Source: Catajapyx aquilonaris (lineage: Eukaryota). Taken from it: DNA of 40,899 nt. The notes beneath the pieces are model-generated. The model ran no database searches, was not told the DNA's origin, and worked only from the letters and a program-made list of their open reading frames with translations. The stretch spans positions 1 to 40,899 of the forward strand of contig JYFJ02003487.1 in assembly GCA_000934665.2 (NCBI GenBank), written 5' to 3'. Position 1 is the stretch's first letter, and each line of letters opens with the position of its first letter. Shown one piece after another: positions 3,878-30,900 of the stretch. A program made the translations under genes and the position numbers.

Positions 3878-3948
<71 letters not shown>

Positions 3949-6900: not shown

Positions 6901-9900
6901 TGCAGTGATGTCACAGGCACTTGCAGTGAGAGAGGCACCTGAAGTGAAGACAAAGGCTCAAAAATGCCTGTCACCTAGCTGCAAGATTAGAATCGGCACC
7001 ACCCCGAGGTGCAAGGGTAGGAATCGACCATGCAACGTGTGTGATATTCCCTTCGATTACCCAAAGTGTATTGAGGTGAAAATTCCCTGCGATGTGGCTG
7101 TGAACGCATTCACCTGCAATAGGGTAAAGCAGTGCAGGGAAGATGAGGAGCCCTGCTGCGACAAGAGTAAGTCCTTATTTTATTCTTGCATGCCTTAAAT
7201 ATAACTGGCCGGTTCCATTTCAATTCTGACAGAGGGTGACCAGTCATGGCCTTAGATTTTTTTGAACAAAAGATATGTGAAACCCATATCCAAGTGAACC
7301 TTTATGGAGCAATCAAATTTACGAGATTAAATCTAGTTATCGAGAAATTAATATTTATTTTAAGGGGTACCTAAATAACCTTCACGGGAAGTGCACTTTT
7401 TCCATTGCTTTCAATGGGTATATTTCCGGAACCGTTCTGAAAACGAATATGAAATTTTAAACTCATGCTTTTGGAATAATGCTCTGTTATGTAATGCATA
7501 CATTTACCTTATTTAATGGTACAGTCACCTTCAAAAAAATCTACAATCTTGCATATTTTTGTCAAAAATGAGCATATTTCGCAATTTATTACGTCGTTAT
7601 GGTACCCTTAACGGTTGTGCTGATTATATTTTGTGATGTACTCGGTCACCCCCTAAAGGTTATTAAATAAAACCTTGGTTAGCCCGCGTGTAGTTGAGAT
7701 ATGTGACGCGAAAATATGGCAACAAGTGAACACATGCATATTTCAAAAATTATGTTCTCAAAAACGCATTTTTTAATATAAAAAAATTTATTTTACCTGG
7801 ACAAACAGGTTATAAAATGAAGTAGTGTCAAAACCCGGTGCATATTTTTTGTAAGGGAGATACTCTTTTTTTTTCAGATGACTACTTTCGTCATTGTGCT
7901 ACAATACAGCACACTGCACACTTTCTCGAAGAAGCCATTTTAAATATTTAATCGTTATTTTTTGTATAACAAAGTAGCATGAGTTCTATTATAAAATTAT
8001 ATCAAAATTCGGCATGCACAATGCCGTAATTTACTGGTACAGTCATCTTCCGAAAAAATCGCCAAATGTGCTTGTTTTGCTGGAAATTCACTTAGTACGC
8101 AATTTATTATGGAGTTATTATTAAGGTTATTGTAGGGACGATAGTCCCTATAGTAAGACCAAACGACCGAAAACAACAATGAAATGTCCCGCTTTTTTGA
8201 CGAAGCATAACTCAAAAACCCTTACAGATAAAGGTTTCACAGTTTGAACATGACACCAGCTCGGCGTGACGGACGATCCTTTTCCTGTCAGGTTATAGCG
8301 AATTCCTTCGCACAACGCCAGAAAAAAATCTTATATCGGTATTCTCTATAATAATGAAGTTCTTCTCTTAGCAACGATGTAACTCTCTATTTAAAAAATT
8401 CAACATTCTCTATTAATAGAATTAGGCCCGTATTCATAATGGAATTCGAACGAGGGGTCGGGGTTGAACCCGGGGTTGAGGCGGAGTTGACCCCGGGTTC
8501 GTATTCATAATGGCCTTGAAACCCCGCGATCCGGGGTTGAGTCGGGCGGGGAGTTGACTCCGGTCCTGGACCAGGGTTCAGTTCTGAACTCGGGGTTGAG
8601 GTCGATTGCAAAAGGCGGAAGGGGTCGAAATTCATGCCGTTCTGAAGCGGCTAGACCTCCGACGCGTGTGTCTGAGGGACCGGGAGAACCCGATGGAGGT
8701 GTACGACGACGCGACGCGTCCCTCCGGCAACTATACCGCCTGCGGAAAGACTGCGTGTTGAACCTGCTCGAAATGATCGCGGCAGACCTCGTTCTTCCTC
8801 TGTGCCATTCATGTAGCAGCTACGTCTGAACTATTACCTCTTCGGCGTCATCGAAAATATTAGCTGCCAATAGCAGCATAGCCTACATGTAATGAATCTG
8901 CTGGAACCACGTGCCACATGCGGCACCAATGCCAATCCGGGAGTCCGCAAAGAAGGCTGCCACTCCCGCGCCACACGCGGGGTAAAACAGGGCACTGTAT
9001 TTTTTCCAGGTCAACCCGACAGGATTCATTACAAGATTGATTACAAGTATGCTGCTATTGGCAGCTAATATTTTCGATGAAGCTGATGTAGCTGCTACAT
9101 GAATGGCGCAAATAACTGCTATTTGTAACTGTTAATCGTCACTTGAACTTGTGACCTGCTTGTGACCATAGAGTAAGGCTTGTGACGCCCTGTAGCTGGT
9201 AGGATACATTAGTATTCTGATGTACAGTACACCTTCTACAATTTTTGTAGGAAAAGAATGCGTCTCGTACCACCCCGCCATGAAGTACAAAAATAATGGT
9301 CACTGTTGCTCCTCACCCAAAATCTTACCTCAACCAGCCCCCTGAGTTAATTATAGCTTATTCGGTACAATAGATGCTGGTCAGCACTTGCTATTTGGTC
9401 CAATAGTCAGCTCATTTACAGGCGCATATTTTACAATATACTGCAGAAGTTGGGTGACAATAATGGCTATGGCCATTATAGTCAGTGGGTGAGGAGCAAC
9501 AGTGGCCACTTTTGATCTCAGACCCATCACTATAGTGATGGGTCTGAGATCAAAAGTGGCCAAGTCCACTGCAGAAATCATGCACTTTAATGTCATTGGG
9601 TATTAATTGCACATTTGCGTATATGTAGCTGACGAGCTTTGCGGCAACGTAATAATTATATGGTCGTACAAGAGGTTAACGTAAACGCGCCCGATTAAAT
9701 CCTTAGTTTTAGCTTAGCAAAGGTGAATTTTTAGTTAGCTTATTAGCTGTTAGAGAAGCTAATTTTTCGGATAGCTGTGCCCACCTCTGTTCTGTTAGTA
9801 AGTTAGGGTGAAATTTTTGTCGTACTACTAGTTACTTCTAACTTATAGCAGTACCAGTGTAGTGCAATACTGCAAATGTACTGCTAAGTTAGCAGTAACT

Positions 9901-12900
9901 CGTAGTACAACGAAAATTCCGCCGTTCGAAATTAAGTAGTAAGTTAGTCACCTGTTATTTTCACTCATTTGCCAAGCACAGGGCCGTTTCGCGACCCGTC
10001 CGCGTGAGAGTGCTAGCATGTACCAAGCACATAAATTTTTAAAAAAGAACTGCAATTATCACAAAAACCTTCCATTCTGTAAAAAAAGGGTAGTAAGACC
10101 TCTATGGCGGATAGAAATTAATTAAACAAGACAGGTATGCGTAAGACCTAGCTTCACTAGATTATTATTAAAGGATATCGTAATGCTACATTACGAAGGG
10201 TATGTGTAAAATTTTTACTAATATGTGAATATGTAAGCAGGGTCTTACTCATGCATTTCTTTATATTAAAATTATAAATATTGGATGAGACGTGTATCTT
10301 GTCAACCAATGCTGCAAGCCTATGAACTTCTGATATCATTACGAATTATAATAATAATATTATTAGTTCTACATACTTATTATATTATTATAAATAAATT
10401 TATATTATCTTGTTATATTATTATGCATGAGTAAGACCCTACTTACATATTCACATATTAGTAAAAATTTTACACATACCCTTCGTAATGTAGCATTACG
10501 ATATCCTTTAATAATAATCTAGTGAAGCTAGGTCTTACGCATACCTGTCTTGTTTAATTAATTTCTATCCGCCATAGAGGTCTTACTACCCTTTTTTTAC
10601 AGAATGGAAGGTTTTTGTGATAATACAAATGAAACCAATTATGTGCGTACAATGTAGTAAAAGGGCATGTTGTAGGGACAAAATAATATCATTAATATCT
10701 GTATTCAAAGAAGAGATACACCTGGTCAAAGTATGGTCATATGAGAAAACATGCCTGAAAGAAACATTTTTTAACTCAAAAAAGGCATTTTTTAATTTTA
10801 TTTCAATTTCATTTGTGTAGATAATGACTCTCTCTTTCAAAAGATATATCACAAACCCGGGGCGTATGCGTAGTAATTGAAATATATATTTTTGAATGTT
10901 GATTCGATTAACTACGCATATGCCCCGCATTTGTAATATATCTCGACCATATAGAGGCGATTCAGGACAATGTGACAAGAGCACTGCCCGCCGTCACAGA
11001 AAGTGATTTCCAGGAAGCATTCCAACAATGGAATAAATAATTAAAGACTGTCTATTGCCAGTAGAGGGAACTACTTTGAAGGGGCCAGTGCTAAAATTGT
11101 TGCAAATTGAACGATAGAGTGTGTATGGAAAAAGTTTTGTCTTTTTTTGAACACCCCGCGTATATGTTTGAAATGTTATTAAATGATATGTGCATTGGGA
11201 GGTGTGGTGACCGAGATGGTCACATCTCGGCTTGCTGAGTGAAAGGTCCCAGGTTCAATCCCCGCCTGGGAATTCATTTTCACCTGCGTCTGGAGGGTCT
11301 CTGACCTGCACCAAGGAGGTGTCTGGCAACCTAACCTCCTGGGGAACAGCACATGACCCGTTTTACAACACAATGTGCCAACATGTGGCAAGAAACCAAC
11401 CATGTTTTGGTATTTTTTGGAAATATTTAATTGGCCCGTCATAAACAAACATGCATCATTTTTTCATTCATTCAAATTGTATAAAATCTTGAAGCGTATG
11501 CTCCAGCACAGTCAGTCGAGATCTGTTTGCTCATCATTGCTGAAATATGTTACTGTTGTGCATACTTCTCAGTGCAATAGTTTGCACAGGTATTGTTTCC
11601 TGCATTACCTTATTAGCTTCAAATTCTTACACAGTTGTTATAATAGAGCTGTTCTCCTAAGTGTGTCTTTCCCGTTGTATTACCAGAAAGCAAGCCATGT
11701 CCCGATGATTGGATACACCAAGGACATCACTGCTATTACTTTTCAAAAGAAAAACGAACTTGGAACGATGCTCGATGGACCTGCCAAGATTTAAATCCTG
11801 GAGCTGAATTGGCCAGTTTCCATTATGAGATTGAAACGAACGTACTGACAAGTAAGTCAATAATTTGCAAGGATATTAAAACGTGAACTTACAAAGTCAC
11901 AAAGGTTTATTGCATTATCCTGTATGGAATATCATTTTGTCCAATATTTATTCTGATGTACTCTCTCGATGTGTCAGAAAACTGTCTTTGTCTGATAGAG
12001 AAGATTCCATATTGCAGCCCTTTGATTTCTGAACATGTGTTTCTGGTGTTCAATACATTCCGTTGAATCGCATATTTCAATTTTCAGAGCATTTGCATGA
12101 TCGCATGTGGATTGGACTCAAATACCTGGGGACGCCAGGCGAATTGGAATGGAGTGATGGTACTCAAGTGGAAGATCGTTATCTCACTTGGGAGGGTAAC
12201 AAGGCACCCGACTCTAATGAAGAGAAGTGCATAGAACTAAAGAAAACTGGCGAAACGGGGGTATTGAAGGACAATAACTGCGACGAAGAATATAACTTTG
12301 CCTGTGAATTAAGAAACATGAGAGGTAAATATTGGTGTTAATAATGAGATTTTCATGTCAGTAGAAATGTTTTACATGGATTGTTTCCATTTTTAGAAGG
12401 ATGTCCGACTGACTGGAAGAGGAGAGGAGGGAGTTGCTACTACTTTTCTACTTTCCCGGCCAAGTGGACAGATGCTAGGAATTATTGCGTGCTAAATAAA
12501 AGTGCGGATTTGGTCAGCTTCGGTGACGAAGACGAGCAGTCTGAACTAGCAAGTAAGTCATTCGTAGACAAAGTATTAAGTATGACTTCAACTTTTATTT
12601 TTTAAATTACTGTAATTAACCTGGACTGTTTTTCAGGGGATATGGTTGAAGCCGTTTGGATAGGCCTTCATTACAATCCTACTGAGGCAGAATGGAGTTG
12701 GACGGACGGAAGTGAAAGTGAATACCGAAGATGGGGTGAAAAGAAGCCCAATGTGGACAGCCAGTACAAGCACTTCTGTACCGAGGCACTTCCCACAAAA
12801 TATTGGAACAACCTTCTTTGCGATTCTACACGTCGCTTTGTCTGCAAATTTGGTACGGCCAAAAAAAAAAAAAAATTGGCAAAATTGGTCATTTTATCAA

Positions 12901-15900
12901 GAAAGCGAAAGCAGCTGTTAACGCCATTTGGCCTTCACTTCTGAGGCTTAAATTACGGGATTTCAAGGTGGCAATGAAAATATTCACAGCCAGAGTAATA
13001 CCATCGCTGACTTACGCATTTCCGGTATGGGGCCGCAATATTTGGATAATTTGGAGATTGCCCAAAATTACTTTGTCAAAAAAAAATTTGCTCTCCCGAA
13101 CAGCACGGCCGGTTACTACCTACGACTTGAGCTTGGTATTGGACATCTTAAACCACAACTGCTGAAAAGAATATGCTCTTATGTTAGGAAGCTCAAACGG
13201 GAGCAAGAGGACACTCTTTTGAGCAGCGCTTTCCGAAGCCTAACCTCCAGCAAATTACCGGTCGGGTGGGCGACACATGTCAACAACAAGTTGGCACTGA
13301 TAGGCACGGCTATTGAGTCAGTAGATACAGTCGACGTTGCTTTGAACCTGATCAACTACAAACAGACCTTGAGGGAGGCAGACTTTGCAGCATTAAGTCT
13401 CTCGCAAAGATATGAACATTATCACCAAACCTTCCAAATGTACCCTGAAATCCGGTGGCCTACATACAATTTGCCATTGCCAATGCAACGCTTTCTAATC
13501 AATTTAAGGCAGGGATCCAACTATCTGGCCCTTGGGAAGCATTCCTTTAAAATAGATGAAGACACTAGTTGTGAGTACTGCAACCTCCAATCCCCCTTCA
13601 CCCTATGGCATTTATTGCGTGAATGCCCACTGTTTTCCGCAGTGACTGGTTTGAATCAGCAATGTTTAGAGCGCTATCCAATTGACCGCTTTCATCTGAG
13701 CTGGGCTGACTTGTCAGCGATGGAAGTCTTTCAGCTGGATCAATTTTTTCATGTATTAGTGTTCTTGCCCCACATTGACCTTAGCATTTGTTTTCTTTCT
13801 TTTTTTTCTTTTTTGATGTGTAAACATGATTATGACGGCCTGTCCCCCCCCTATATTGGCAATTGCCACAGGGGGTACCACAAATAAATAAATAAATAAA
13901 TAAATAATGACCCGGTGATGCCCACCAGGGTGCAGCCAGGGACCAACACTCTGGGACTTGGCGATGGACACCTGGTTCGAGATAGCGTTGCGGGCCACGA
14001 CAAATGGCATCCGTCTCTTGCTGCAGGCCTACGCGGACGACCAGGTGGTACTTATCATGGCCACTTCGATTACGAAAATAGAGAGGGAGTGGTGTGACCT
14101 GGAGCCTCATTTGAAGACGTGGGCTGCAGACATGGAGCTTGCGTATAACACAAGGAAGACCTAGGGACTTTCCTTCCCTTGGCGTAGAGTCCAATCCAGC
14201 AGCTAGGCAACTGGAACCAAACATCACTTTCCTGGGGGAGAAGGTGGAGCTGAAGGAGTCAGTGAGGGTCGTTGGCCTTCGGATGGACCCGGGTTTAACG
14301 TGGAAACCGCATGTCAGATGGGTCCGAGACAAAGTCAAAAAGCTGGCTGCTGGAATCTGGAGGGTGGGTCGCCAGAACTGGGGTATGACCCCCAGTATTA
14401 GACGTCATGTGTTGATGTGGGCCATCCTGCCATGCTAAGCTATGGGTCGGAAGTGTGGGTACGTCGAGCCAGAGGCTACTGGAACACCAGACACCTTCGT
14501 AGTTTTTGCAAATATTTACTTGGCCCGTCATGAACAAAATATGAACCATTTTTTCATTCATTCAAATTGTATAAAAACTCGGAAGTGTCCGTTCCAGCAC
14601 AGTGACAAGATGTTTGCTCATCAGAGCAGAAATACATATTACTGTTGTGCACACTTTTCAGCGCAATAGTTTGCACAGATATTGTTTCCTACCTTATCTT
14701 ATTAGCTGCAAATTTTTCCACAGTTGTGATAATAGAACTCTTCTTGTAAGTGTGTCTTTTCCCGTTGTATTAACAGAGAGCAAGCCATGTCCCGACGATT
14801 GGGAATACTACGGAGATCACTGCTATCGCGTTTATAAAGAAAACCGAACCTGGAACGATGCTCTAAGTACTTGCCGAGGATTAAATCATGGAGCTGACTT
14901 GGCCAGTTTCCACAGTGATATCGAAGCTAACCTAGTGACAAGTAAGTCAATAATTTGCAAATACATTAAAACTTGAATCAACAAAGTCACAAAGGTTTAT
15001 CACATTATCCTGTATGTAAGGAATATGAGTTTGTCCAATATGTATTCTGATGTACACTCATTGAGTCATGAGAAAACTGTCTGTCTATTAGAGAGGATTC
15101 CATATTACGGCTCTTTATTTTTTAAACATGTGTTTCTGGTGTTCAATACATTCCATTGAATTTCATATTTAAATTTTCAGAGCATTTTTATAGAGATATG
15201 TGGATTGGACTCGTTGTTCTGGAGAAGCCAAGGAACTACACATGGAGTGATGGTAGTAAAGTCGTTGAGAGATATCTCGGTTGGGAAAACCCTAAACCCA
15301 GCTCTGCTGAAGATAAGTGCACAGAACTACTAGAGGAAAACGGGAAATTGAACCACAAGAAGTGCAACACTTCATTGAACTTCATCTGTGAATTCGGAAA
15401 CCAGACAGGTAAATATGGGTGTTAATAGTGATATTTTCAGGTCCGTGGAAATGGTTTACATGGATTGGTTCCAGATTAGACTTTTTCGAAGGAAATTTTT
15501 TTATAGAACATCAGTCTGTCTGTCTGTGGACAGGTCTCAGACAGACAGCCGTGCTATAAGACTTTTTTCAAGCCCCCTGGCTGCCCCCACTGTCCCCAAC
15601 CCCCGACCGCCCATTTCCCCCAGAGAAGACAGACAGACAGTGCCATGCTACAATCCTTTTTTTCAATTTTTGTGGTCTGGGTTCACTCTATCCTCCCCTT
15701 CCCCATGGCTACTTCCTTCCCCCACCACCCCCTCCCCCAGATGACCCTTTCCCCCCACCGTGACGGACGTTGGGGACAATAGCAGTAAACATGAAAAAGT
15801 CTACTCTAATCACTCTCACGTGATTTGCCAATCTTGTTTAGGAGAATGTCCGACTGACTGGATGAAGATAGGATCCAGTTGCTACTACTTTTCGACGTTC

Positions 15901-18900
15901 CCGGCCTACTGGACAGCTGCAAGGAATCATTGTGTGCTAAATAAAAGTGCAGATTTGGTCAATAAAAGTGCAGATTTGGTCAGCTTCGGTGAAGAAGATG
16001 AGCAGTCTAAACTAGCAAGTAAGTCACTCTTAGACGAGGAATTAAGTACGACTTCAACCTATAAAAAAATAACTGTAATTAATCTGGACGCTTCTTCAGG
16101 TGATATGGTTGAAGCCATTTGCATGGACATTGAAGCTAGCATAGAGATAAATAAGTGAATAATTTGCAAACATCTTAAAACTTGAACTAACAAAGGTGTA
16201 TTGAATTATCCTGCATGGAATATCATTTTGTCCAATATTTATTGGTGATTATTGGTGCCATTTATTATTGCAAGCAGATCCTGCTGCTACAAAATATTGG
16301 TATTAATCAGTAACATGTTCGGAAAATTAAAAATGCACTGCACCTCGTATTAGGCCTACAACTTAGCAGAATGGGAAATTGCTATTAAAATACAATCCCC
16401 CTCTTGCGTCAATGCCTTTCATTTATTTCAGGGGTTCTCAGCTGATGTCCCGGGGACCACCTTTGGCCCGCTAACTCGTAGCATCCAAAATAATGCATAA
16501 TAAAATTTCGATCATGCAAACTCATACTAAGCTTCGGACATGATTTTATCAATTGTATGGCCCGGTATGGCCAGCGACCCCTAAGAAGTTACGCGTCCCA
16601 GATTCCTAATTAGTAATAATATAATCAGGTAATGGCCGTTGGCTGTAGCTCCCTGTCTCAAGGTAAAAGGAGAATGGTACTGTCAAAGAAAACAAGGAAG
16701 AATCACCTCACCTGAGATGATGTCGCACTCACAGAGAAGGGGACGCATTTTAAAAATTATTCCCAGTTGCAGTGTTAACTTGCAATTACAGTATGCCGTT
16801 CATAGTGTCCGAAGCTCATAATTATTACGATCCACACAATCTGAGTGAAATGCGGCATCATGCATTGACGCAGTGGCAGACGTCATTTCAGCAGGAACGC
16901 ATGGGCAAGAATAGGGTTGCATTGGCCTAGTCCGCAGTTGAAGATGACAAAGAGGCAAGGAAAGGAGAGGAGTTTTGCTCCATTGTTTACCCCCAGCATC
17001 GAGTTGCTAGCGATCAATTATTGCAACAAACGATGGCGGCCATGTTAACCTGTTGGTGATTGTTGATGTGGGTTTAAATCAGTTGCCAGGGTAAACAACA
17101 ATAGGGGTCTTTCCCTGCAGTCCCACCCTCTTCTTGACATTTCGGCCTTGATTTCGGCAGTGCTAAGCAGCCTTTTGTAAACTGCGCATAAACAATGTGG
17201 TGCATTTATTGCCTTTTCCCAGATCGTCCTTATTCATGCCTTGCACTGACACCGTCATTCTGACATGCAACGTGCACCAATAATGGGGAACTAGCCTTGG
17301 TCTGGGATTTGGGATTTTTGTTCATAACTAGCTAGCCCATGTCTGCAACATACATTCCATCACTCTGTTGCATCAATATGACATTACTGGATAAATTACG
17401 GCACATTTAAAAGTGCCTTCAAAATTGGCGGGAAAAACGGAGGAGCCGGGTGGTGCCAATCGAAAGGGTACACTGAAATGCCTGGTTGACTGCGAGATAT
17501 GAGGAATTTGATTTAGAATTTACCGCGGACGCGACGGAAAGCATTCGCAAGGCGGCTGTAGGCCATCGAGGTGGAGAAGGGGGACCTTTATGTGCCTAAT
17601 TCAGGAGACAGATATTTCCGACCTGGTGGCATCACTGCCACGTACAAAGCGGTTTGAGCTGCTTAGAGTAAAAACTCGCCCGTTACCTGGCAACTAAGTA
17701 AACACTTGGACTGCTAAAATGCCCAGCCGTGTCCATTTTACGACCATGCCGGGGCGCGTTCTATAACATCATTTTTGCGTTCATTTCACTTCGCGTGACG
17801 TCAACATTTTCGAGGAAAACAGTGACGTCACCATTTTCCCACGAAAAAACGCCAATATCTCCGCAACTGAAACTGATATCTTAAAACGGAATACCCCAAG
17901 AAAAATTCAAAAATTATGGGCGAATTTATTATGTAGTTTCCAAAATGAAGGCTAGTTCCCCATTATGCCAAAATTCAACAGACGATGCTATGCAAATGCA
18001 GGCGACAAAATCAAGGAACCCGGAATATGCTGCCACCAAGGTCACGCAAGCCTAGTTCAGGGAAAACATAAGGTAGCACACGGACCCGGGTTAAAAGTGT
18101 GGGGGGATAGACGGCCTTGGTCTCACATAGATAAGGCAAAGCGCAAGCATTCACACTGTCTTTGTCTACGTATTAGAGAAGACTCTATATTGCAGTAGTT
18201 TCATTTTTGAACATGTGCTTCTGGTGTTCTATACATTCCGTTGAATTGCATATTTCAATTTTCAGAGCATTTGTATCTGCACATGTGGATTGGGCTCATT
18301 GTTCGGGCTAAGCCAATCAACTACATATGGAGTGATGGCATGCGAGTGGATGAGGATTATCTCGATTGGGAAAACCCTAAACGCAACTCTGGTGACGGGA
18401 AGTGCACAGAACTACGAGAGAAAGGAGAGAAATTGAACCACGAGAAGTGCGACACTGAATTGAAATTTATCTGTGAATTAAAAAACCAGACAGGTAAATA
18501 TGGGTGTTAATAATGTTATTTTCAGGTCCGTGGAAATGGTTTACATGGATTGGTTCCATTTTTAATAGATTGTCTGACTAACTGGACGAAGATAGGATCG
18601 AGTTGCTACTACTTTTCGTTTGACAAGCTCTCGTGGGACAAAGCAAGGCGTCATTGCGTGCTAAATGAAGCTGCGAATTTGGCCAGTTTCAGTTACCCAA
18701 AGGAGCAGTCTGAACTAGCAAGTAAGTCATTCTTAGACGAGGAATTAAGTATGACTTCAACCTATTAAAAAATTACTGTAATTAACCTGGACTTTTTCAG
18801 GTGATATGGTTGAAGCCATTTGCATGGACATAGAAGCTAACAAAGAGATAAATAAGTCGATAGTTTGCAAATATCTGAAAACTTGAACTAACAAAGTCAC

Positions 18901-21900
18901 AAAGGTTTATTGCTTTATCCTGCATGGAATATCATCTGGTCCAATATTTATTCTGATCAGGGATGGAAAAAGAACCAAAGAATCGGTTCTTTTTCCATCC
19001 TTGATTCTGATGTAACTCTCATTGATGTGTCAGAAAACTGTCTTTGTCTATTAGACAATAGTTCAATATTTCAGGACTTTAATTTTCAAACGTGTTTCTG
19101 GTGTTCAATACATTCCGTTGAATTGCGTATTTCAATTTTCAGAGCATTTGCGTGAGCACATGTGGATTGGACTCTCTTCCCTAGGTAGATACAGTTATAC
19201 ATGGAGTGATGGTACTGTAGTGAATAGGGAGTATATCAAGTGGGGGCCAGGTGAGGGCAAAAACTTTGACGAGAAATGCGTTATACTCAAGAGGGGTCCA
19301 CCAGAGGTATTGCAAGACTTTCCCTGCGATGTTCAATTTTACTTTGTCTGCGAAAAAAAAGAGCCAGGTAAATATGGGTGTTAATAATGATATTTTCATG
19401 TCCGTAGGAATGTTTTACATGGATTGGTTCCATTTTTAGTAGGATGTCAGAAGCAGTGGCTGAATGGATCATCCACTTGCTACTACTTTTCGGGTGATAA
19501 GAGAAGTTGGACAGATGCGCAGACGTTTTGCAGGAATGAGAAATTTTGTGATTTGGTCAGTTTCAGTGACGCAGAGGAGCAGGCTTTCCTAGCAGGTAAG
19601 TATTCTGAGACAAAGAATTACGTTAGACTTCAACATTTTAAAAAATTGCTGTAATTAACCTTGACTGTTTTTCAGAGCTAATGAAAGTGGCTACGGATAG
19701 ATGGGCGCCCAGTAAGTCAATAATTTAAAAATATATTAAAACTTGAACTAACAAAGTCACAAAGGTTTATCACATTATCCTGCATGGAATATCAGTTTGT
19801 CCAATATTTATTCTTTTGTAACCTTCATTGATGTGTCAGAATACTGTCCTTGTTTATTCGAGATGATTCCATATTACAGTACTTTAATTTTTGAACATGT
19901 GTTTCTGATGTTCGTTGAATTGCATATTTCAATTTTCAGCTTATACACAAGTGTGGACTGGACTCAATTCCTTGGACATATGGGCATATAGTGATGGTAA
20001 CAAATATGTTAAGGAATTTATCGCTTGGGGTGATCGTCAACCCACCTCTAATGACGATAAGTGCATAGGAGTCACCCTATACAAAACGAGTCAAACAGAG
20101 GCATTGAGAGCCTGGATGTGCATAAGAGAATTGAAATTTATATGTGAATTAAAAGACCAGACAGGTAAATATGGGTGTTAATAATGATATTTTCTGGTCC
20201 TTAGAAAAATGTTTTACATGGATTGGTTCCATTTTTAATAGATTGTCTGACTAACTGGACGAAGATAGGATCGAGTTGCTACTACTTTTCAACTGTCAAG
20301 CGCAAATGGGAAGATGCGGTTGCTTATTGCAGGAACCTGAATAAAAGTGCAGATTTGGTCAGCTTCAGGGAGAAAGGGGTGCTGTCTGAAGTAGCAAGTA
20401 AGTCATACTTGGAGAAAGAATTACGTACGACTTCCAACATAAATAACAAATTACTGCAATTAACCTAGACTCTTTTTCAGGTGATATGGTTGAAGCCATT
20501 TGCATGGACATAGGATCTGACATAGAGATAAATAAGTGAATAATTTGCAAATATATTTAAACTTGAACAAGCGAAGTCACAAAGGTTTATTGCTTTATCC
20601 TAGATGGAATATCAGTTTGTCCAATGTACGCGCATTGATGTGTCAGAAAAATGTCTTTGTATATTAGAGAAGATCCCATAATTATTGCAGTACTTTGATT
20701 TTCGAATCACATATTTCAATTTTCAGAGCATTTGCGTGATAACATGTGGATTGGACTCACTGCCCTGGACAACCCAATCAAATATAATTGGACTGATTCT
20801 ACTCACGTGGAGGAGAGTCATCTCACTTTTGATGGAACTGATCCCAAGTATGATGTAAAGAAGTGCATAGAACTAAGCAATACAGGGAAATTGATCTACA
20901 CTGAATGCAACAATGAATTTAACTTTGCCTGCAAATCAACAAACGGGACTGGTAAATATTGGTGTTGATAATGATATCTTCATGTCCGTAGAAATGTTGT
21001 ACATGGATTGGTTCCATTTTTAGGAGGATGCCCGCCTGACTGGTGGAGTATAGAATCCAGTTGCTACTACTTTTCGACTGTCAAGTGCAATTGGGCTGAT
21101 GCGAAGAAGGATTGCGAGATAAATAAAAGTGCAGCTTTGGTCCATTTCAGTTACCCAAAGGAGCAGTCTGAACTAGCAAGTGAGTCATTCTTAGAATTAA
21201 GTACGACTTCAACATAAATAACAAATTATCGCAATTAACCTGGACTGTTTTTCAGGTGATATGGTTGAAGCCATTTGGATGGGCATAGAATGTAACATAG
21301 AGATAAATAAGTCAATTATTTGCAAATATCTTAAAACTTGAACTAACAAAGTCACAAAGGTTCATTGCATTATCCTGCATGGAATATTATTTGATCCAAT
21401 ATTTATTCTGATGTACTTTCATTGATGTGTCTGAAAACTGTCTTTGTCTATTATAGAAGATTCCATATTGCAGCACTTTAATTTTCATACATGTGTTTCT
21501 GGTGTTCAATACATTCCGTTGAATTTCAAATTTCAATTTTCAGAGCATTTGCATGATCGCATGTGGATTGGTCTCTTTATCCTGGACGAACCAATCAAAT
21601 TTAATTGGACTGATTCTACTCCAGTGGAAGAGAGTTATCTCACTTCTGATGTAACTAATCTCTTGTTTGATAATGAGAAGTGCATAGAGCTCAACATAAT
21701 GGGGAAATTGATCTACACTGAATGCAACAATGAATTCAACGTTGCCTGCAAATTAACAACCATGACTGGTAAATATTGGTGTTGATAACGATATTTTCAT
21801 GTCCGTAGAAATGTTTTACGTGGATTTGTACCATTTTTAGGAGCATGTCCCCCTGGCTGGAAGAGGAGACTGTTCAGTTGCTACTACTTTTCAACTGTCA

Positions 21901-24900
21901 AGCTCAATTGGACAGCTTCGATTAGTTATTGCAGGGGCTTGCAAGAAAGAGCAGATTTGGTCAGTTTCCATGACCAATTGGAGCGGTCATACGTAGCAAG
22001 TAAGTCATTCTTGTACAGAGAATTACGTACGACTTCCACATCAATAAAAAATTGTTGTAATTAACTTGGACTGTTTTTCAGGTGACATGATTGATGATGA
22101 CGTGTGGATAGGCCTTCATTACAATTCTGATGATGATGAGTGGATGTGGACGGACAGAAGTGCAAATGACTACCGCGGATGGGATACAGAGGATCCCCAT
22201 TGTTTGGACACCGACCAGTGTACCAAGATAGTTTTCCAAAAAGACTGGAAGCACCTTCCTTACGGAGGTGAATCCCATCACTTTGTCTGCAAATCCGCTC
22301 TGCGAGGTACGGACATTTTATTTACAAATAATGTATCATCACATCACTGCACTTTTAATGAAGCCAACCCATGGCCCTCTGAATGGATCAGAAATGACCC
22401 GAACTTCTCTCGAGATAAACTGCAGGCTCTTCAGGAATGTGGCAATTTAGACGAATGAGCTATTCTGGTTACAATGGTTGATGAACATGAATACAACTTT
22501 GTTAAAGAAACATGTATTGTGTACAGTAGCACATTCAAAACCTGTGAATAGCTCATCTTTACGATGTGTAGGATCATTTTCCGATTATCTGGGGACACTC
22601 GTGCAGTCATTAGCCCGGATAATTGTGAGGACAGTGTAATTCCAGGGTGGTTAAGATTCCCTGCGATGTGGCTGTGAAAGCTTTCACCTGCACTATGGTA
22701 AGATACACTTACTTCGTACACTTTTCTTCGACTGGCAAGTTTAGGATTGCATAAGACCACTTTATTGCCAGGGGCAAGTCAACGATAGCAGCCTTATGGT
22801 CTACGCTAGTTCAATTGAAAGTCTGTAATCTCTCCACACCTCATTGAAGCTGTTCTCGGCCCAAATTGCTCCAATCGTTTTATACAATGCTCATGTATGG
22901 AGTCTTGATTATTCAATAGAAACAGAACGATTGCAGCTGTTCTTCATCAAGCTATTCCTATCTCTCCCACCTAACACATGTGGCAAACTACGTATTTGTA
23001 CGTTTAGAATCTGGCCGCAGCACTTTCGTTGTCAATGTCTTCAAAATTATGCTTCAATGGCAGATCAGACTAACAAACATGCCATATGACCAGTTGCCAA
23101 AGAGATGTTTCCATTATGCGGTGAAGAATGGATTACTGTACAAAGCTAACTGCTTTTGACAAAGTCGCTTCTCTTTTGTCAAAAGCAGGCAATACATGGG
23201 ACTATAGTGACCGGCAGGCACGCCATCCCCTGCCGGCTTCACGTCAGGGGCAAATGTCCCCTGACTCTCATCGGCCTCATAACCTATCCTGTCCCCTGCT
23301 CTTTTTCTGCTCTTTTTCCCTCCAAAAACCGTCAAGGCCAGAGTCTCCCAACTCTGGCTGGATCTCCACAAGGTCCGTGCCTTGACTATAAAAGCAGCAC
23401 CAAGGCCCGGGCCACTTCACTTCAGCTGCAGCCTTCAACGAGGAACACCGACTCCGAGCTCCACAGCAGCCACGGCCTACGAGCTCAGCAGCAGCAGCGC
23501 ATCGAACAACCGGTCCTTCTCAGGACCAACATAACAAACGGCCCTTTTCAGGGCCAACACGAGCATCCGTAAAGGGTCACCAAATTGGTGACCCCGACGT
23601 GACCCGAACCAGACGACCGGCCGAGTGATGGCTCCTCCACGGACGTCCGCCGCCACTGCACCTGTGAAGATTCCGCCATTCTGGCCAGAAGACCCGCAAC
23701 TGTGGTTCGCCCAGGTTGAGGCACAGTTCGCCGTCCGGGGAATCACAGCGGAGAAGGCCAGGTTCGACCATGTGCTGGCCTCCCTCGCCCCAGAAGTCGC
23801 CACCCAGGTCCGGGACATCATCATGCACCCGCCCAGCACCGAGCAGTACACCGCCCTTAAGGGGGCACTCATCTCCTGCACCACCGTGTCAGAGTCCCAG
23901 TGTCTGCAGCAGCTGCTGCGAGACATGGACCTGGGTGACCAGCGACCGTCGCAGCTGCTGCGTCGTTTTGAGCAGCTGTACGACAGGCAGCTCAATGAGG
24001 AGCCCATCTTCCGGGAGCTTTTCCTGCAGAAGCTGCCGCAGCAGGTGCGGCTCGTCCTGGCCGCGACACCAGAACAGTCACTCAACCAGTTGGCGGCCAT
24101 GGCCGACAAGCTCACAGATGCTGTCCAACTGCCGTCGGCATCATCTGCCGCAGCCGTCGCCATCCCTGCTGCAGAGGGGCAGCCTCCGGCCGCCGACACT
24201 TCCGGCCTCGAAGAGCTGCGCTCCAATGTAGCAGCGTTGACCGCGGCGGTCCAGAAGCTGGCAGCCGGACACCGTCGGCCTACCAGAATCCGCCCTGCGG
24301 CACGTCCGAAGCCTTCGCCAGCCCCCGTCCGTGCTGCCGCCCAACAAGCAGGTGACCAGACCATATGCTGGTACCACGCAGAATTTGCGGAGAACGCCCG
24401 CATCTGCCGGCAGCCCTGCTCATTCATGATGGGAAACGACAACTAGAGTTGGCGTCGGCAGCATCCAACTCATCACCCAGCCCTTGCAGCCGCCTCTTCA
24501 TCCGCGACCGTCGTACCAAATTTCACTTCCTGATCGACACGGGCGCTGCCCTGAGCATCCTTCCTGCTTCCTCTTCCGACCTGCCTAACCTTCAGCCCCT
24601 GGCGTTAGAAGCAGCGAACCAGAGCACAATTCATTCAGACCTATGGGCAGCGCCTTCTCACCTGTTCCCTCGGACTACCCCGTACCTTCCAATGGCTCTT
24701 TACAATAGCCAGCATACCCCTGCCCATCATCGGTGCCGACTTCCTGCAGAATTTCAACCTGGCTGTTGATCTCCGCGCCAGGAAGCTCGTCGACCTCGAC
24801 AAGCATGTATCGGTCATCGGCTGTCTCCGCCGAACCTCCGCCATCAACCTCAAGCAGAAGCTGGATTCGCCTGACCCGTATGCTGCATTACTGCGCCAGT

Positions 24901-27900
24901 TTCCGGCTCTCATCACGCCCCCGCAGTGTGACGACGTCGTTCGACACTCCGTGAGACACCATATCGAAACGGCCGGACCACCTGTTTTTTGCCAAGCCCC
25001 GTCGACTGGCCCCGGAGAAGCTGGTCCAGGCAAAAGCAGAGTTTGATCATCTGCTCCGTCTTGGGTATGCAAGGCCATCCAGCAGCCAATGGGCGTCACC
25101 CCTACACATGGTGGCAAAGAAGACCGGAGATTGGCGTCCATGTGGAGACTACAGACCTCTTAACGCGGTCACAATCCCCGACCGTTATCCAATCCCACAT
25201 ATCCATGATTTCACCGCCACCATCGCCGGTTCGACCATCTTCTCACACATTGACCTCGTCCGGGCCTTCCATCAAATTCCGGTGGCCGAAGAAGACGTTC
25301 CGAAGACGGCCATCACCACTCCATTCGGCCTGTTCGAATTCACAAGGATGGGATTCGGCCTACGGAATGCAGCCCAGACGTTCCAGAGGTTCATCGACCA
25401 GGTCCTACGCGGCCTGCCTTTCGCATACGCCTATATTGACGACGTTCTTGTGGCCTCTCCTGACCACGAGTCCCACCATCGCCACCTGAGAGACCTGTTC
25501 CAACGACTCGCTGAGCATGGCGTGCACATCAACCCGCAGAAATGTGTCTTCGGCCGCAACGAGCTCACTTTCCTCTGCCACACCATTTCTGCTGCGGGCA
25601 TCCGCCCCTTGCCGGAGAAGGTAGCAGCCATCGGTGACATACCCACACCAACATCTCGGCGGCAGCTCAAACATTTCATCGGCATGGTGGTGTACTACCA
25701 TAGATTTTTGCCGGCAGCCGCTTTGAAGCTCGCCCCACGCGCTGGCTAATGGCTCTACCAACAAGCTGTCGTGGACCACGGAGGCTACTGTTGCTTTTCA
25801 AGACATCAAGCAGATGCTGGCAGAAGCGACTTTACTCTCACATCCTCGCAGCGACGCCTCTTCACGACTCATGACCGACGCGTCCAACGAGCATGTCGGA
25901 GCCGTGTTGCAACAGCTCCAGGATGGACAGTGGCTGCCTCTTGGCTTCTTTTCCCGGAAGTTGACACCAGCAGAGACCCGATACAGTACTTTCGACAGGG
26001 AATTACTGGCCATGTACTCAGCTGTACGTCATTTTCGGCACCTGTTGGAAGGCCAGCCCTTCCACATAATGACGGACCACAAACCGTTGACCTTCATCTT
26101 CCGGACCGCCAGCAGCAAGCTCTCCCCTCGCCAGTGTCGTCACACTGGATACATCTCGGAGTTCACTACGGACGTCCGGTTCATTCCAGGAGCAGACAAC
26201 GTCCTCGCTGATCTCCTCTCTCGACCCGACGTAGCAGCAGTCACCCCCCGGACCCAGGAGGACATCGCTAGAGCGCAGACGACGGACGACGAGCTTCGGA
26301 AACTCCTGGACGGCCCCATCGGTTGCGAGTTTCGCACTTTTCCAGTACCTAATTCTGACCTTGTCCTTACCTGCGACACCTCTGGTGGGCGTTGCCGGCC
26401 TTTATTCCCGCTTCCTTTCCGCCTTCCCATTTTCCAGCAACTACATGACCTGGCACACCCGGGCATGCGTGCCTCGCAACGTCTGGTATCGGAGAGATAC
26501 GTATGGCCTCGCATGCAGTCCGACGTGCGGCAATGGGCCCGTTGCTGCATCAGCTGCCAGAAAGCCAAAATTCATCGCCACACCAAAGCCCCGCTGTCCA
26601 CATTTCCTGCTCCAGACGGTCATTTCCAGCACGTCCACGTCGACCTCGTCGGACCACTACCTACGTCACGAGGCTGTCGCTACCTGTTCACCTGTGTCGA
26701 CAGGTTCACCCGCTGGCCAGAGGCGGTTCCTGTACCGGACATCACGGCGGAGACGGGCACGTGCCCTCATCGCTGGATGGATCTCTCGTTTTGGCCTACC
26801 AGATTGCATCTCCACTGACCGTGGCACCCAGTTCGAGGCATCACTGCACCACCAGCTGCTTCGGTTACTCGGCGTTACCCGTCGCCGTACCTGCGCCTAT
26901 CACCCACAGGCCAACTCAATGGTAGAGCGCTTCCACCGACAGCTGAAGGCATCCCTCCGTGCGCTTCCTTCACCGGACAATTGGGTCGATGCACTTCCCC
27001 TCGTCCTGCTCGGCATCCGTACGGCGCACAAAGCGGACATAAACGCCAGCTGCGCCGAACTCACGTACGGCACGTGCCTTCGGCTTCCTGGAGAGCTATT
27101 CACACCGCCAGCTACGCTGCTAGCCACACCACCGGACGTCGCGACGTACCTCCGTCGGCTCCAGGAGGTGTTCCAGCTCATTCGCCCCCAGCCAGGGTCA
27201 CGGCACGGCACGGCACCCTGTTTTCAGCACCCGGACCTGCATGCGACGACGCATGTGTTCGTCCGTCACGACGCCTCAAGTCCACCTCTGCGCCCCCCCT
27301 ACGACGGCCCGTAGCCCGTGACCAGCCGAAGCGACAAGTACTTCGCCGTGCAGATCGGGCAGAGGAGCACCAACGTGTCCGTGGACCGCCTGAAGCCAGC
27401 ATTCATTGAGGCCGCGGCTGGGCAGACTCCAGGCAACCCGGTCACTGACGACACTACCTCACCGGCCCGTTCCATGAGCTGCCGCCGGTCCGACCGCATC
27501 GCCAACCAGGTGTCATGTCTGGACGACGATCCAGCCACTGGAGGGGGGTTAATATAGTGACCGGCAGGCACGCCATCCCCTGCCGGCTTCACGTCAGGGG
27601 CAAATGTCCCCTGACTCTCATCGGCCTCATAACCTATCCTGTCCCCTGCTCTTTTTCTGTTCTTTTTCCCTCCAAAAACCTTCAAGGCCAGAGTCTCCCA
27701 ACTCTGGCTGGATCTCCACAAGGTCCGTGCCTTGACTATAAAAGCAGCACCAAGGCCCGGGCCACTTCACTTCAGCTGCAGCCTTCAACGAGGAACACCG
27801 ACTCCGAGCTCCACAGCAGCCACGGCCTACGAGCTCAGCAGCAGCAGCAGCAGCGCATCGAACAACCGGTCCTTTTCAGGACCAACATAACAAACAGCCC

Positions 27901-30900
27901 TTTTCAGGGCCAACACGAGCATCCGTAAAGGGTCACCAAAGGACCATTGGTCGAGTTCTCCATCTTAACCTGTAGCTGCCTCCTTCACAGCCCAATACAA
28001 AGATGTCACCAATCAAAACGATTATGCGGAATTGGGGGACTCTTCCAGGTACCAAAATTACGCCGAACAAAAAAAGTGCCAATTGCACGAGGCTTGCTTT
28101 TCATACAATTTCCCCATTAAAATCACCAGGATAGTGGCAAATTTAAGCAGTGAATCTCATTACTTGCGAATTCAAGGCTATACATGTTTTCCATCCATCC
28201 ATCAACTGATTGTACATTGCGTTACCCACACAGACTAGCTAGTCTCTAGCATGAATTGTACACATGTTCTTGCCATGAAGTATGCACCTCTCAGAGTGGC
28301 CCCAAGTCTCGCCAGATGAGACTTAACATTTCATTGCATGATCCTCCGCCCCACTCACTATACCAACTGTACTCCATCTTCGTCCATTCAACCAGGCTGC
28401 AATGACGTGCAGACATTGTTCTGGAACCCTAACAACGTTGCTGCATACCCAGATCCCCACCCTGATTGTTAAGATTAGCTTCCACCTTGGCGGTCCAATT
28501 AGTCAACGTCATCACTTGCAAATTCCTTTTTTTTGTGAATTGATTTGTTAGTGAATATTATGACGGCAGATATTCAATGAATATTACCACACAATGCGCC
28601 AACATGTGGCAAGAAAAACTTCTTTTTAAACCATCCATGTTTTGATAGTTTTTGCAAATATTAATTTGGCGCGTCATAAGCAAATATGCACCATTTTTTC
28701 ACTCATTCAAATTGTATAAAATCTTGAAGCGTCTGCTCCAGCGCAGTCAGTCGAGATCTGTTTGCTCATCAGCTCAGAAATGTGTTACTGAGTGCGTACT
28801 TCTCAGTGCAATAGTTTGCACAGGTATTGTTTCTTGCATCATATTTGCTGCAAATTTTTATACAGTTGTTATAATAGAGCTCTTCTGGTAACTGTGTCTT
28901 TCCTCTTGTATTAACAGAAAGCAAGCCATGTCCCGATGGTTGGGAATACTACGGACATCACTGCTATCGCATTTACAAAGAAAGAAAACATCGGAACAAT
29001 GCTCTATTGACTTGCCTAGGGTTAACTCCTAGAGCTAACCTGGCCAGTTTCCACAGCGATATAGAAGCTAACGTAGTGACAAGTAAGTCAATAATTTGCA
29101 AACATATTGAAACTTGAACTAACAATGTCGCAAAGGTTTATTGCATTATCCTGTATGGAATATCACTTTGTCCAATATGTATTCTGATGTACTCTCATTG
29201 ATGTGTCAGAGAACTCTCTTTGTCTGTTAGAGAAGATGCTATACACTTTAATTTTTGAACATCTGTTTCGGGTGTTCAGTACATTCCGTTGAATTGCATA
29301 TTTCAATTTTCAGGGCATTTGTTTCGCCACATGTGGATTGGACTCAAATACCTGGGGACGCCAGGCAAATATAACTGGAGTGATGGTACTCAAGTGGTAG
29401 ACGGTTATCTCAAGTGGATGGATGATGAGGAACCCGACTCTGAGGAAGAGAAGTGTATAGAACTAGTCCTACATCAAACCAACAGCGCATTGGGCATCGA
29501 AATGGGGAGATTGAACAACAATAACTGCGACAGGGAATTAAACTTTGTCTGCAAATTAAAGAACCGGCCAGGTAAATATAGGTGTTAATAATGATATGGT
29601 CAGGTCCGTAGAAATGTATCACGTGGATTGGTTCCATTTTTAGAAGGATGTCCGACTCACTGGATGACTAGAGGATCGAGCTGCTTCTACTTCTCGACTG
29701 TCAAGCTCTCGTGGACAGAGGCGAGGAAGTATTGCGTGCGGAAAAATGCAGATTTGGTCAGTTTCAGTGACGACATGGAGCAGTCCTACTTAGCGAGTAA
29801 GTCATTCTGAGACATAGAATTACGTACAACTTCAACATAAATAAAAAATTACTGTAATTAACCTGGACTGTTTTTCAGGTGAAATGGTTCCAGACGTTTG
29901 GATAGGCTATTATTACAGTAGCAGTGTATCGGAATGGCAGTGGCGGGACAGAAGTGCAGTTGGCTACGAGAGATGGAACGAAGGGGAGCCCGATGATGAA
30001 ACAAGCAAGAGCTGTTCCCACGTACTTTTCACAAAAAAGTGGTTCAGCCAAGGATGCGAAGCATCTAACCGTTGCTTTGTCTGCAAATTCCCTCTGCAAG
30101 GTACGGACATTTTATTTACAAATGTATCATCACAGTACTGCACATGTAATATTGTAGAAGCCAACCATGTCCCTCTGGATCAGGGGTTTTTAAACTTTTC
30201 GATGCCCCCTGCACCCCCGGGAAATGTTTCATTAATGTTCGCACCCCCTTCGAAAGTACTGTCAGACAACGGTGTCTAATGTTTGATTTTTGAACCACAA
30301 ACTGAAACATGTACGAGGGATGTTCAAGTCATTCCCGGACTTTATTTTTTAACAAATCACACACAGGTGACACAGGTGTCAAACTTTGGTCATTACTCCA
30401 CATAGTCCCCTACAACAGCACAACATTTTCCCCACCGATGTATAAGCCCTTTTATCCCAGCAGCATAGAATGAGAGTTCCCCCCTCCTCAGCTACGCCAG
30501 GACAGCTTCTTGCACTGTCTCATTCGTCTCGATGACAAATGCTCTTTTAAAGGCCCAAAAAGGTGGAAATCGATGGGGGCGAGGTCGGGGCTGTATGGCA
30601 GGTGAGGAATAGTGGTCCAATTGAGTGTGCGAATTTTGTCCATGGTAATATGGGCTGTGTGGGGGCGGGCATTGTCCTGCAGTAGAATAATGCCTTGCAG
30701 ACACCTTAGAGACGTGAAGGTGTTCATGCAGAATAGTCTCAACACTGCCACAACTGATTCCTGTCATCTGCATAAGTCCACGAACAGTTAACGCAACGGT
30801 TACTGAGCACTAAACCCTCCACATCCTTGATGTTCGCTGGCGTCACCACACTCGGCGCCGACGCACCATGTCCCGGATCATCGAGCACACTTTTGCGGCC

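Follow-up and report, generated by a model that had tools for sequence, protein, structure and literature searches.

C-type lectin-like exons that have changed faster than their introns in a tandem array of Catajapyx aquilonaris

Contig JYFJ02003487.1 of Catajapyx aquilonaris (assembly GCA_000934665.2), analysed here over positions 1 to 40,899 (the window), carries 22 exons that each encode one half of a C-type lectin-like domain (CTLD), all of them on the forward strand between positions 11687 and 30100. The coding parts of this array have changed three to four times faster than the intervening introns, and the observation that exons outrun introns, made in an original prediction from the sequence, is confirmed. 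A contrast of this kind is known from venom, immune and fertilisation genes, where it marks selection for diverse binding proteins. We consider it probable that duplication and unequal crossing-over gave rise here to a young tandem array, in which diversifying selection acts together with short-tract gene conversion or another exon-confined process. A tblastn search of the window with the exon translations reproduced the predicted exon count: three A and eight C exons encode first halves of the domain, and eight B and three D exons encode second halves.

Each B exon and the C exon that follows it form a unit, and the eight B-C units were compared in 28 pairs. The contrast had been noticed in two units, where the 72-nt introns at 12325-12396 and 19368-19439 were said to match at 67 of 72 positions and the adjacent exons B1 and B4 to share about half of their residues or fewer. 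Both statements held, with 67/72 identical intron positions and an identity between B1 and B4 of 43.2% in protein and 60.8% in DNA. Over all pairs, the B-C introns have a mean identity of 89.0% (range 83.3-95.5%), and introns of the A-B type and the C-D type average 86.5% and 82.5%, respectively. The mean identities of the B exons are 64.4% in DNA and 41.1% in protein, and those of the C exons are 71.2% and 53.5%. The step in identity is located at the splice sites. The A and D exons show the same trend, where the non-coding sequence upstream differs by 11-15%, the A exons by 17-24% and the D exons by 31-40%. Nonsynonymous (dN) and synonymous (dS) distances of B and C together both exceed the intron distance in all 28 pairs. 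Since a gap-permissive free nucleotide alignment lifted exon identity only to 64-82%, errors in the codon alignment are not the cause of the contrast.

When rates were estimated under a proportional-partition model, the relative rate of the introns was 0.49, whereas codon positions 1, 2 and 3 had rates of 1.45, 2.14 and 1.53 in B and of 1.36, 1.58 and 1.06 in C. The fastest class in both exon types is codon position 2, where a change is always a replacement, and this position evolves 3.9 times faster than the introns. A rate equal to that of the introns was rejected for position 2 (twice the log-likelihood difference, 2dlnL, 89; p 3e-21), position 1 (57; p 3e-14) and position 3 (53; p 3e-13). 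The corresponding tree lengths are 0.62 for the introns, 2.21 for B and 1.66 for C. The reading frame was preserved throughout, as had been claimed: the lengths of all 22 exons are divisible by three, and every exon is open, of phase 1-1 and bordered by AG and GT, whereas only 5 of 21 gap blocks in the introns are divisible by three.

To measure selection on amino-acid change, we used our own GY94 site models, a pairwise homoplasy index (PHI) test and a GENECONV-like test as substitutes for codeml and HyPhy; the GY94 program recovered simulated dN/dS ratios (omega) of 0.3, 1 and 2. For the B exons, the one-ratio model M0 gave an omega of 2.03 (2dlnL 13.9 against omega = 1), and the maximum-likelihood (ML) omega stayed between 1.94 and 2.18 across settings, above 1 with 2dlnL of 13-16. 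Model M2a was preferred over M1a in B (2dlnL 36.3, p 1e-8), with about 60% of sites at an omega of 3.6, and in C (2dlnL 13.5, p 0.001), with 34% of sites at an omega of 2.8. This preference was robust to four codon-frequency models including Fequal, F1x4 and F61, to the removal of gapped columns and to the use of exon, intron or joint trees. A posterior above 0.95 was reached at 20 of 85 sites in B and at 5 of 59 in C; these sites do not fall on the invariant Trp, Gly, Leu, Asp and Cys positions but are otherwise spread through the exon. Because PHI gave no signal of recombination inside the B exon (p 0.28-0.35), the result for B is unlikely to be an artefact of recombination. Diversifying selection, which the original prediction had proposed, is thus supported by an omega of about 2.0 in B and by M2a over M1a in both exon types. 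A dN/dS clearly below 1 with dS far above the intron distance had been named beforehand as the outcome that would speak against it; the ratios found were 1.94-2.18 in B and 1.03-1.23 in C. Two further expectations stood only in part. Changes had been placed between the WIGL motif and the last Cys, but they are not confined to that region, as sites in B also lie before WIGL and after the last Cys. Structural residues are kept as had been stated, except that exon D2 lacks one of the paired cysteines.

Silent change is also raised in the exons. The tree dS is 1.09 in B and 1.29 in C against 0.62 in the introns, about 1.8-2.1 times as much, and dN is 2.5-4.2 times the intron tree length. At codons that encode the same residue in both copies, change amounts to 0.29-0.33 per synonymous site versus 0.14 in the introns, and 139 of 512 fourfold sites of such codons have changed versus 1,336 of 9,519 intron sites. 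In the 18 degenerate codons of residues that never vary, the excess is weaker but still visible (0.198 versus 0.140). As the excess persists at same-residue codons, positive selection on replacements is not the whole story. CpG was considered as a cause; the GC content of the exons is 0.42-0.47 versus 0.31 in the introns, and CpG depletion is similar. Judged from the sequence pattern, two explanations fit the synonymous excess: short conversion tracts may homogenise non-coding DNA while converted exon cores are removed, or an exon-confined mutational input, as ASSET-like switching or as templated patches from outside paralogues, may be at work.

Signs of exchange between units are found in the same alignment. 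Trees of the different segments conflict, with units 2 and 3 grouped by the introns (97%), units 6 and 7 by the B exons (100%) and units 1 and 2 by the C exons (94%), and the PHI test over the whole unit gave p 0.001. In a permutation test on runs of identical polymorphic sites (global p), three tracts were detected. The tract shared by units 3 and 5 holds 33 consecutive identical polymorphic sites over 77 columns and runs from the B-C intron into the C exon (p 0.0015), that of units 3 and 6 begins in the last part of the C exon and continues into the C-D intron (p 0.0065), and that of units 6 and 7 lies inside B (p 0.049). Exons C3 and C5 are identical over their first 47 nt and about 60% alike over the remainder, and B5 and B3 end alike, with 94.6% identity over the last 37 nt of B5. 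Since identical tracts cross exon-intron borders, short conversion tracts occur that are centred on introns and reach conserved exon edges. The suggestion that introns are homogenised by gene conversion thus gains support from the three tracts, the PHI result over the whole unit and the discordant trees.

The array, including its 5' end, spans 11480-30100 on the + strand, and its features are listed below together with relics and the large insertion, with a slash marking the exon-intron border.
11480 to 11589, + strand: 5' end with TATAAAA at 11480, ATG at 11547, leader and phase-1 donor CAG/GTATTG at 11590; the only intact 5' end of the array
11687 to 11851, + strand: exon A1, first half of CTLD 1, 165 nt, phase 1-1
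12088 to 12324, + strand: exon B1, second CTLD half, 237 nt, Lectin_C 44.2 bits
12325 to 12396, + strand: B-C intron of unit 1, 72 nt, one of the two introns of the original prediction
12397 to 12552, + strand: exon C1, first half of the next CTLD, 156 nt
12637 to 12852, + strand: exon D1, second CTLD half, 216 nt, donor G/GTACGG
14636 to 14678, + strand: dead signal-peptide exon, with ATA in place of ATG and AT in place of the donor GT
14777 to 14941, + strand: exon A2, 165 nt
15181 to 15408, + strand: exon B2, 228 nt
15842 to 16018, + strand: exon C2, 177 nt
16100 to 16150, + strand: chimeric mini-exon relic in which the 5' part of a D exon runs in frame into the 3' part of an A exon, with AT instead of the donor GT
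18801 to 18851, 20481 to 20531 and 21256 to 21306: further copies of the chimeric relic
18266 to 18493, + strand: exon B3, 228 nt
18569 to 18721, + strand: exon C3, 153 nt, acceptor moved by 3 nt
19143 to 19367, + strand: exon B4, 225 nt, more diverged than any other B exon (terminal branch 0.55)
19368 to 19439, + strand: B-C intron of unit 4, 72 nt, the other intron of the original prediction
19440 to 19595, + strand: exon C4, 156 nt
19676 to 19711, + strand: candidate mini-exon at the relic position of unit 4, 36 nt, open, phase 1-1, AG and GT kept
19940 to 20164, + strand: exon B5, 225 nt, Lectin_C 22.0 bits
20242 to 20397, + strand: exon C5, 156 nt, acceptor shifted as in C3
20727 to 20951, + strand: exon B6, 225 nt
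21024 to 21179, + strand: exon C6, 156 nt, donor GTGAGT
21544 to 21768, + strand: exon B7, 225 nt
21841 to 21999, + strand: exon C7, 159 nt
22082 to 22306, + strand: exon D2, 225 nt, without one paired cysteine
23203 to 27940, + strand: long terminal repeat (LTR) retrotransposon between D2 and A3, not part of the lectin gene; LTRs at 23203-23584 and 27553-27940, 97.4% identical
28782 to 28823, + strand: another dead signal-peptide exon, which lacks the start and has a 1-nt deletion
28918 to 29082, + strand: exon A3, 165 nt
29314 to 29571, + strand: exon B8, 258 nt
29644 to 29796, + strand: exon C8, 153 nt
29879 to 30100, + strand: exon D3, 222 nt, donor G/GTACGG
33556 to 33702, + strand: remnant of an additional domain, a decayed CTLD first half interrupted by an in-frame stop

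Upstream of each of the three A-B-C-D units lies a common sequence of about 275 nt that includes a TATAAAA box and a short first exon; the start codon, the hydrophobic leader and the GT donor are intact in the first unit only. The exon of this unit (11547-11589) encodes a hydrophobic, signal-like peptide of 14 residues, judged by eye. Between C and the next B in units 2-6 lies a hybrid intron made up of three parts, namely a C-D intron, a 51-nt chimera of a D start and an A end, and an A-B intron. Four of the chimeras have lost the donor by a change of GT to AT and differ from each other at 3-6 of 51 positions, like the introns, whereas the candidate mini-exon of unit 4 is strongly diverged from the other relics. 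The dead leader exons sit in upstream regions differing by 11-15%, and the copy at 14636-14678 has diverged from the live one to about the same degree as the introns. In C3 and C5, the old acceptor AG was lost and a new AG lies exactly 3 nt downstream with the frame intact. A decayed piece homologous to that at 33556-33702 is also present 3' of D2 (about 22340-22460).

Some units carry length changes of their own. In C2, an in-frame tandem duplication of 21 nt (15940-15981) repeats seven residues, a change of length tolerated in a first-half exon. The B-C intron of unit 2 holds an insertion of about 360 nt (about 15475-15835) that is proline-rich in one frame, and an insertion of about 1.9 kb (about 16240-18140) lies in the hybrid intron 5' of B3. 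A palindrome at 18956-19005 in the A-B-type intron of unit 4, with 21-nt arms that are 95% complementary and a loop of 8 nt, is flanked by repeated ATTCTGAT and looks like a miniature inverted-repeat element; the palindromic insertion (18955-19007) is also the best Rfam match of the array (mir-1255, 31.9 bits versus 63, below threshold).

To judge from its composition, the hybrid intron is what remains of an in-frame crossover by which neighbouring two-domain genes were joined. In the history that we propose, a two-domain gene consisting of a signal peptide and exons A, B, C and D would have been copied, and a crossover that joined the first part of a D exon in frame to the last part of an A exon would have fused adjacent copies and left the chimeric relic. 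The B-C cassette with its relic would then have been amplified by unequal crossing-over. Since then, as the statistics show, diversifying selection on amino-acid changes has driven the exon cores apart, most strongly in the second-half exon that holds the long-loop region, and the non-coding parts, namely introns, relics and dead signal-peptide exons, have changed little. Short-tract gene conversion between units would keep homogenising the non-coding DNA and the conserved exon edges, and selection would remove converted exon cores; synonymous sites linked to selected sites would keep older differences because converted cores are removed.

Several results weigh against this history. The NG86 estimates of dN/dS, 1.14 in B (bootstrap 0.75-1.56) and 1.08 in C (0.71-1.76), both span 1, with mean dN and dS of 0.51 and 0.45 in B and of 0.38 and 0.35 in C; the ratio exceeds 1 in 20 of 28 pairs, and unit 8 is involved in six of the eight remaining ones. 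The M0 omega of the C exons (1.19; 1.03-1.23 across settings) is not significantly above 1, and recombination in the C exon (PHI p 0.008, window 50) can inflate the site-model tests. In B4 and B5, dN and dS rise together, which could reflect mutation and not selection. The step at the splice sites is sharp, B has no gradient from edge to core, and a 72-nt intron is very short for a conversion tract; these features are more easily explained by an exon-confined process than by conversion of the introns. Exon distances correlate neither with those of the flanking introns (Mantel r about 0), as would also follow from a star-like burst of duplication, nor with physical distance. These results do not separate a duplication burst from homogenisation, and the lack of correlation with the introns does not discriminate between the two accounts of the synonymous excess either. 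The position of the selected sites on a ligand-binding surface is a proposal of the original prediction, and the gene model, the skipping of the relics and expression are all deduced from sequence.

The contrast could also stem from an exon-confined mutational process that selection only filters, such as ASSET-type segment replacement, templated micro-conversion or targeted hypermutation; for micro-conversion, the donors would be diverged CTLD paralogues at other genomic sites, homologous only as far as the exon borders. We regard this as unlikely, although much of the pattern would suit it. Differences between exons are clustered, with 5-8 adjacent bases changed next to stretches of perfect conservation, synonymous change reaches about twice the intron level even at same-residue codons, dN and dS are jointly raised in B4 and B5, identity drops at the splice sites with no gradient in B, and the unit-4 relic was replaced by unrelated sequence between conserved flanks. 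In the available part of the ASSET report, the cases have introns more than 85% alike and exon segments 12.5-50% alike (PMC2711939). But mutation alone cannot give an omega of 2 or make codon position 2 the fastest, and a search of the window for donors of the diverged segments in B4, B5, C4 and the unit-4 mini-exon yielded nothing beyond conserved motifs. Compensated frameshifts explain little and were rejected as the main source of diverged blocks, as the free nucleotide alignment adds only a few points. As far as the available text goes, the ASSET authors themselves propose no mechanism (PMC2711939). A further version would be a self-diversifying recognition gene, in which replacement of short exon segments, templated or not, would include synonymous sites, end at the splice sites and be combined with alternative splicing of the phase 1-1 B-C cassettes. 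We hold it to be rather improbable; if true, one locus would yield many multi-lectin proteins, an ASSET-like process would exist outside snake venoms, and relic exons would have stopped changing once they were out of the mRNA.

Three other readings locate the cause elsewhere. If only the introns were unusual, conversion would have kept them in concert while old exons evolved under ordinary purifying selection. The conversion tracts and discordant trees would agree with this, as would intron distances that are star-like (p 0.11-0.19 in 28/28 pairs) and unrelated to exon distances, and a dS above the intron distance in every pair. Yet dN/dS is not below 1 (NG86 above 1 in most pairs, ML omega of 2.0 for B), M2a is preferred in both exon types, and tracts limited to a 72-nt intron would have to be very short and very frequent, with no gradient left in B; we therefore judge it very improbable. 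An array in decay, with pseudo-exons, relaxed constraint and noise on a recent duplication, could be read from the overall C omega near 1, the death of two of three signal-peptide exons, the missing cysteine of D2 and the transposable elements inserted in and around the array. But neutral exons would match the intron rate instead of exceeding it 2.7-3.9 times, and invariant Cys, Trp, Gly and Leu positions are retained. True relics of the same array carry stops, frameshifts or lost donors, whereas frame, splice sites and a stop-free state are kept in all 22 live exons, in which about 32 stop-creating hits would be expected if the changes were neutral (assuming a stop fraction of 4.2%). As the exons stayed intact while the relics decayed, we take decay to be ruled out for practical purposes, with the fast change tied to the status of a live exon. 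Finally, the introns might be conserved for a function in the splicing control of cassette choice or as hosts of small RNAs, since three different introns are conserved over their whole length and acceptor contexts of the A-B type and donor contexts of the C-D type are present in every cassette. Against this, no Rfam family reached its gathering score within 11300-30300, the B-C introns fold no better than shuffled sequences (z -0.05 to -0.51), and no recurrent docking- or selector-like inverted repeats of the Dscam kind were found in 18200-22400. Substitutions are scattered and not arranged in blocks, and conservation is just as strong in the dead signal-peptide exons and relic mini-exons, which lack such a role. 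Constraint on the introns is unlikely, and such functions have a very slim chance of being the explanation. The history of duplication, selection and short-tract exchange described above is thus the one that we prefer.

The identity of the domains was examined in profile and database searches. The B and D exons match Pfam PF00059 (Lectin_C) at profile positions 40-107; among the seven tested (B1, D1, B4, B5, D2, B8 and D3), six passed the cut-off of 22.6 bits with 27-48 bits, and B5 stayed below it. First-half exons alone also scored below the cut-off (C1, 14.1 bits), and A1 matched only UL45, a CTLD-like family, with 16.3 bits; such scores are expected for half-domains of 50 residues. The CTLD fold is marked by a WIGL-type strand and paired cysteines. 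All eight B exons share invariant W, G, L, D and three C residues, and all eight C exons share, in order, C, W, C, Y, F, S, W and C. Sugar-binding CTLDs carry EPN or QPD plus WND at calcium site 2. In the array, inspected by eye, the positions aligned with EPN/QPD vary (e.g., NKA, NPK, GPG and DGT), the WND position reads LKD, LNH, LQD or LIY, both motifs together occur in none of the eight B exons, and D3 has EPD without WND. As the canonical calcium and sugar motifs are absent, the ligands need not be sugars.

Among solved structures, exon B1 best matched the CTLDs of MRC1, DEC-205 and Endo180 (E 2e-10 to 7e-9). As a single query, B1 gave two distant matches among nine candidates, and a profile of the eight B exons gave 264. 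The best 120 of these 264 have 26-50% identity, with the higher values over partial coverage, include no close orthologue and span echinoderms, hemichordates, molluscs, a copepod and vertebrates. At the top of the database matches stand multi-CTLD proteins of 1,400-2,000 residues from sea urchins, acorn worms, molluscs and a copepod. A conceptual splice of the live leader exon and the 22 exons yields 1,439 residues and 11 domains with no stop, and this product aligns end to end, at about 23% identity, with multi-CTLD proteins of 1,754 and 1,826 residues. The product is likely secreted, with many CTLDs that are each tuned differently, and may form a single chain of 11 domains, given that only the first unit keeps a start codon and that every exon is of phase 1-1; for the latter reason, any cassette could also be skipped in frame. 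The donor at which the D exons end is conserved, but the 3' end of the gene was not found in the window downstream of D3, where no further exon was identified. From the mode of evolution, our guess is a recognition role in immunity, adhesion or gamete binding.

Mobile elements and other open frames surround the exons. The LTR retrotransposon between D2 and A3 contains long gag- and pol-like open frames, and it appears much younger than the array because its LTRs are 97.4% identical whereas the non-coding parts of the array have diverged by 11-19%. Matches in its LTRs that resemble the histone 3' stem-loop (23535-23579, 28.7 bits; 27863-27935, about 18.5 bits; gathering score 34) are probably due to chance. 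A poly-A stretch and a fragment of a non-LTR retroelement with long frames on both strands (about 12860-14400) start less than 10 nt past the D1 donor, and the fragment would be intronic if D1 splices onward. At 30488-31299 on the - strand, open frames that presumably represent a mariner/Tc1-type transposase lie in DNA that interrupts the sequence 3' of D3, and the homologous continuation resumes near 33556. Two stop-to-stop frames of 401 and 681 codons, at 5993-7198 and 34116-36161 on the + strand, flank the array and are very cysteine-rich and repetitive, with recurring Glu-Leu/Val-Pro-Cys and Cys-x-x-Cys-Gly-x-Pro-Gly-like motifs. A near-length search with the 681-codon frame gave no match at E <= 0.001 among 284 candidates, and the sequences could represent an unannotated family of secreted cysteine-rich proteins. 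An open frame at 3646-3987 has a run of about 25 leucine codons (a trinucleotide repeat), and a single N occurs at 1031.

When the array was compared with known systems, the mannose-receptor family and the invertebrate proteins named 'macrophage mannose receptor 1-like' were found to share its chain of at least eight CTLDs. Members of the family (MRC1, DEC-205, PLA2R and Endo180) have a ricin-type and a fibronectin type II (FNII) domain before the CTLDs and a transmembrane segment and cytoplasmic tail after them. In Catajapyx, the signal-peptide exon joins A1 across an intron of 97 nt, which leaves no room for a ricin-type or FNII domain, and no transmembrane end was found within the window. 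To our knowledge, the domains of mannose receptors do not evolve in an exon-accelerated way. In major histocompatibility complex (MHC) genes, recombination or conversion homogenises introns while selection keeps adjacent exons diverse, and synonymous divergence in exons exceeds intron divergence. MHC differs in that alleles and loci there are under balancing selection, whereas here paralogous cassettes lie in one array with introns of only 72-240 nt.

Accelerated exons are also known from venoms. Ogawa et al. (2005) reportedly studied venom C-type lectin-like proteins (CTLPs). In snake-venom families including such proteins, the available parts of two reports describe introns more than 85% alike, radically changed exon segments and replacement change at least equal to silent change (PMC2711939, PMC6062510). 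As in these families, so far as those parts describe them, the copies here are duplicated, the fold and cysteines are conserved, and short exon segments have changed between conserved flanks. The introns of the array are likewise more conserved than its exons, dN among paralogues is at least as high as dS, and a site class with an omega of about 3 occurs in B and C. The venom families differ in that they consist of separate toxin genes, whereas here domain exons are repeated, probably within one gene; in the Catajapyx array, moreover, short conversion tracts can be demonstrated, and the animal has no known venom context.

The closest architectural analogue, going by the available part of its report, is oyster sperm bindin, a single gene with one to five tandem F-type lectin domains, each of which is split mid-domain by an intron (PMC5712786). 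According to the same text, bindin was diversified by positive selection, recombination within introns, variation in repeat number and alternative splicing (PMC5712786). Recombination among repeats together with positive selection was also found here. Bindin differs, within the portion available, in its F-type fold and in that the intron is the variable part, and alternative splicing is documented for bindin only. Among the literature matches listed, no report described conserved introns next to fast-changing CTLD exons in a multi-CTLD gene of an invertebrate, which is not proof of absence.

The locus is clearly a new and internally controlled example of a known mode, the accelerated evolution seen in venom genes and oyster bindin. 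Live exons, introns, dead leader exons and relics of the same age stand side by side, which makes selection, conversion and exon-targeted mutation separable, and the excess of synonymous over intron change bears on the old and unsettled question of whether accelerated evolution has a mutational component. Arrays of this kind would offer a route to broad recognition repertoires in animals without antibodies, and if transcripts confirm an 11-domain protein or a choice of cassettes, the array would provide a compact model for the growth and diversification of multi-domain lectin receptors.

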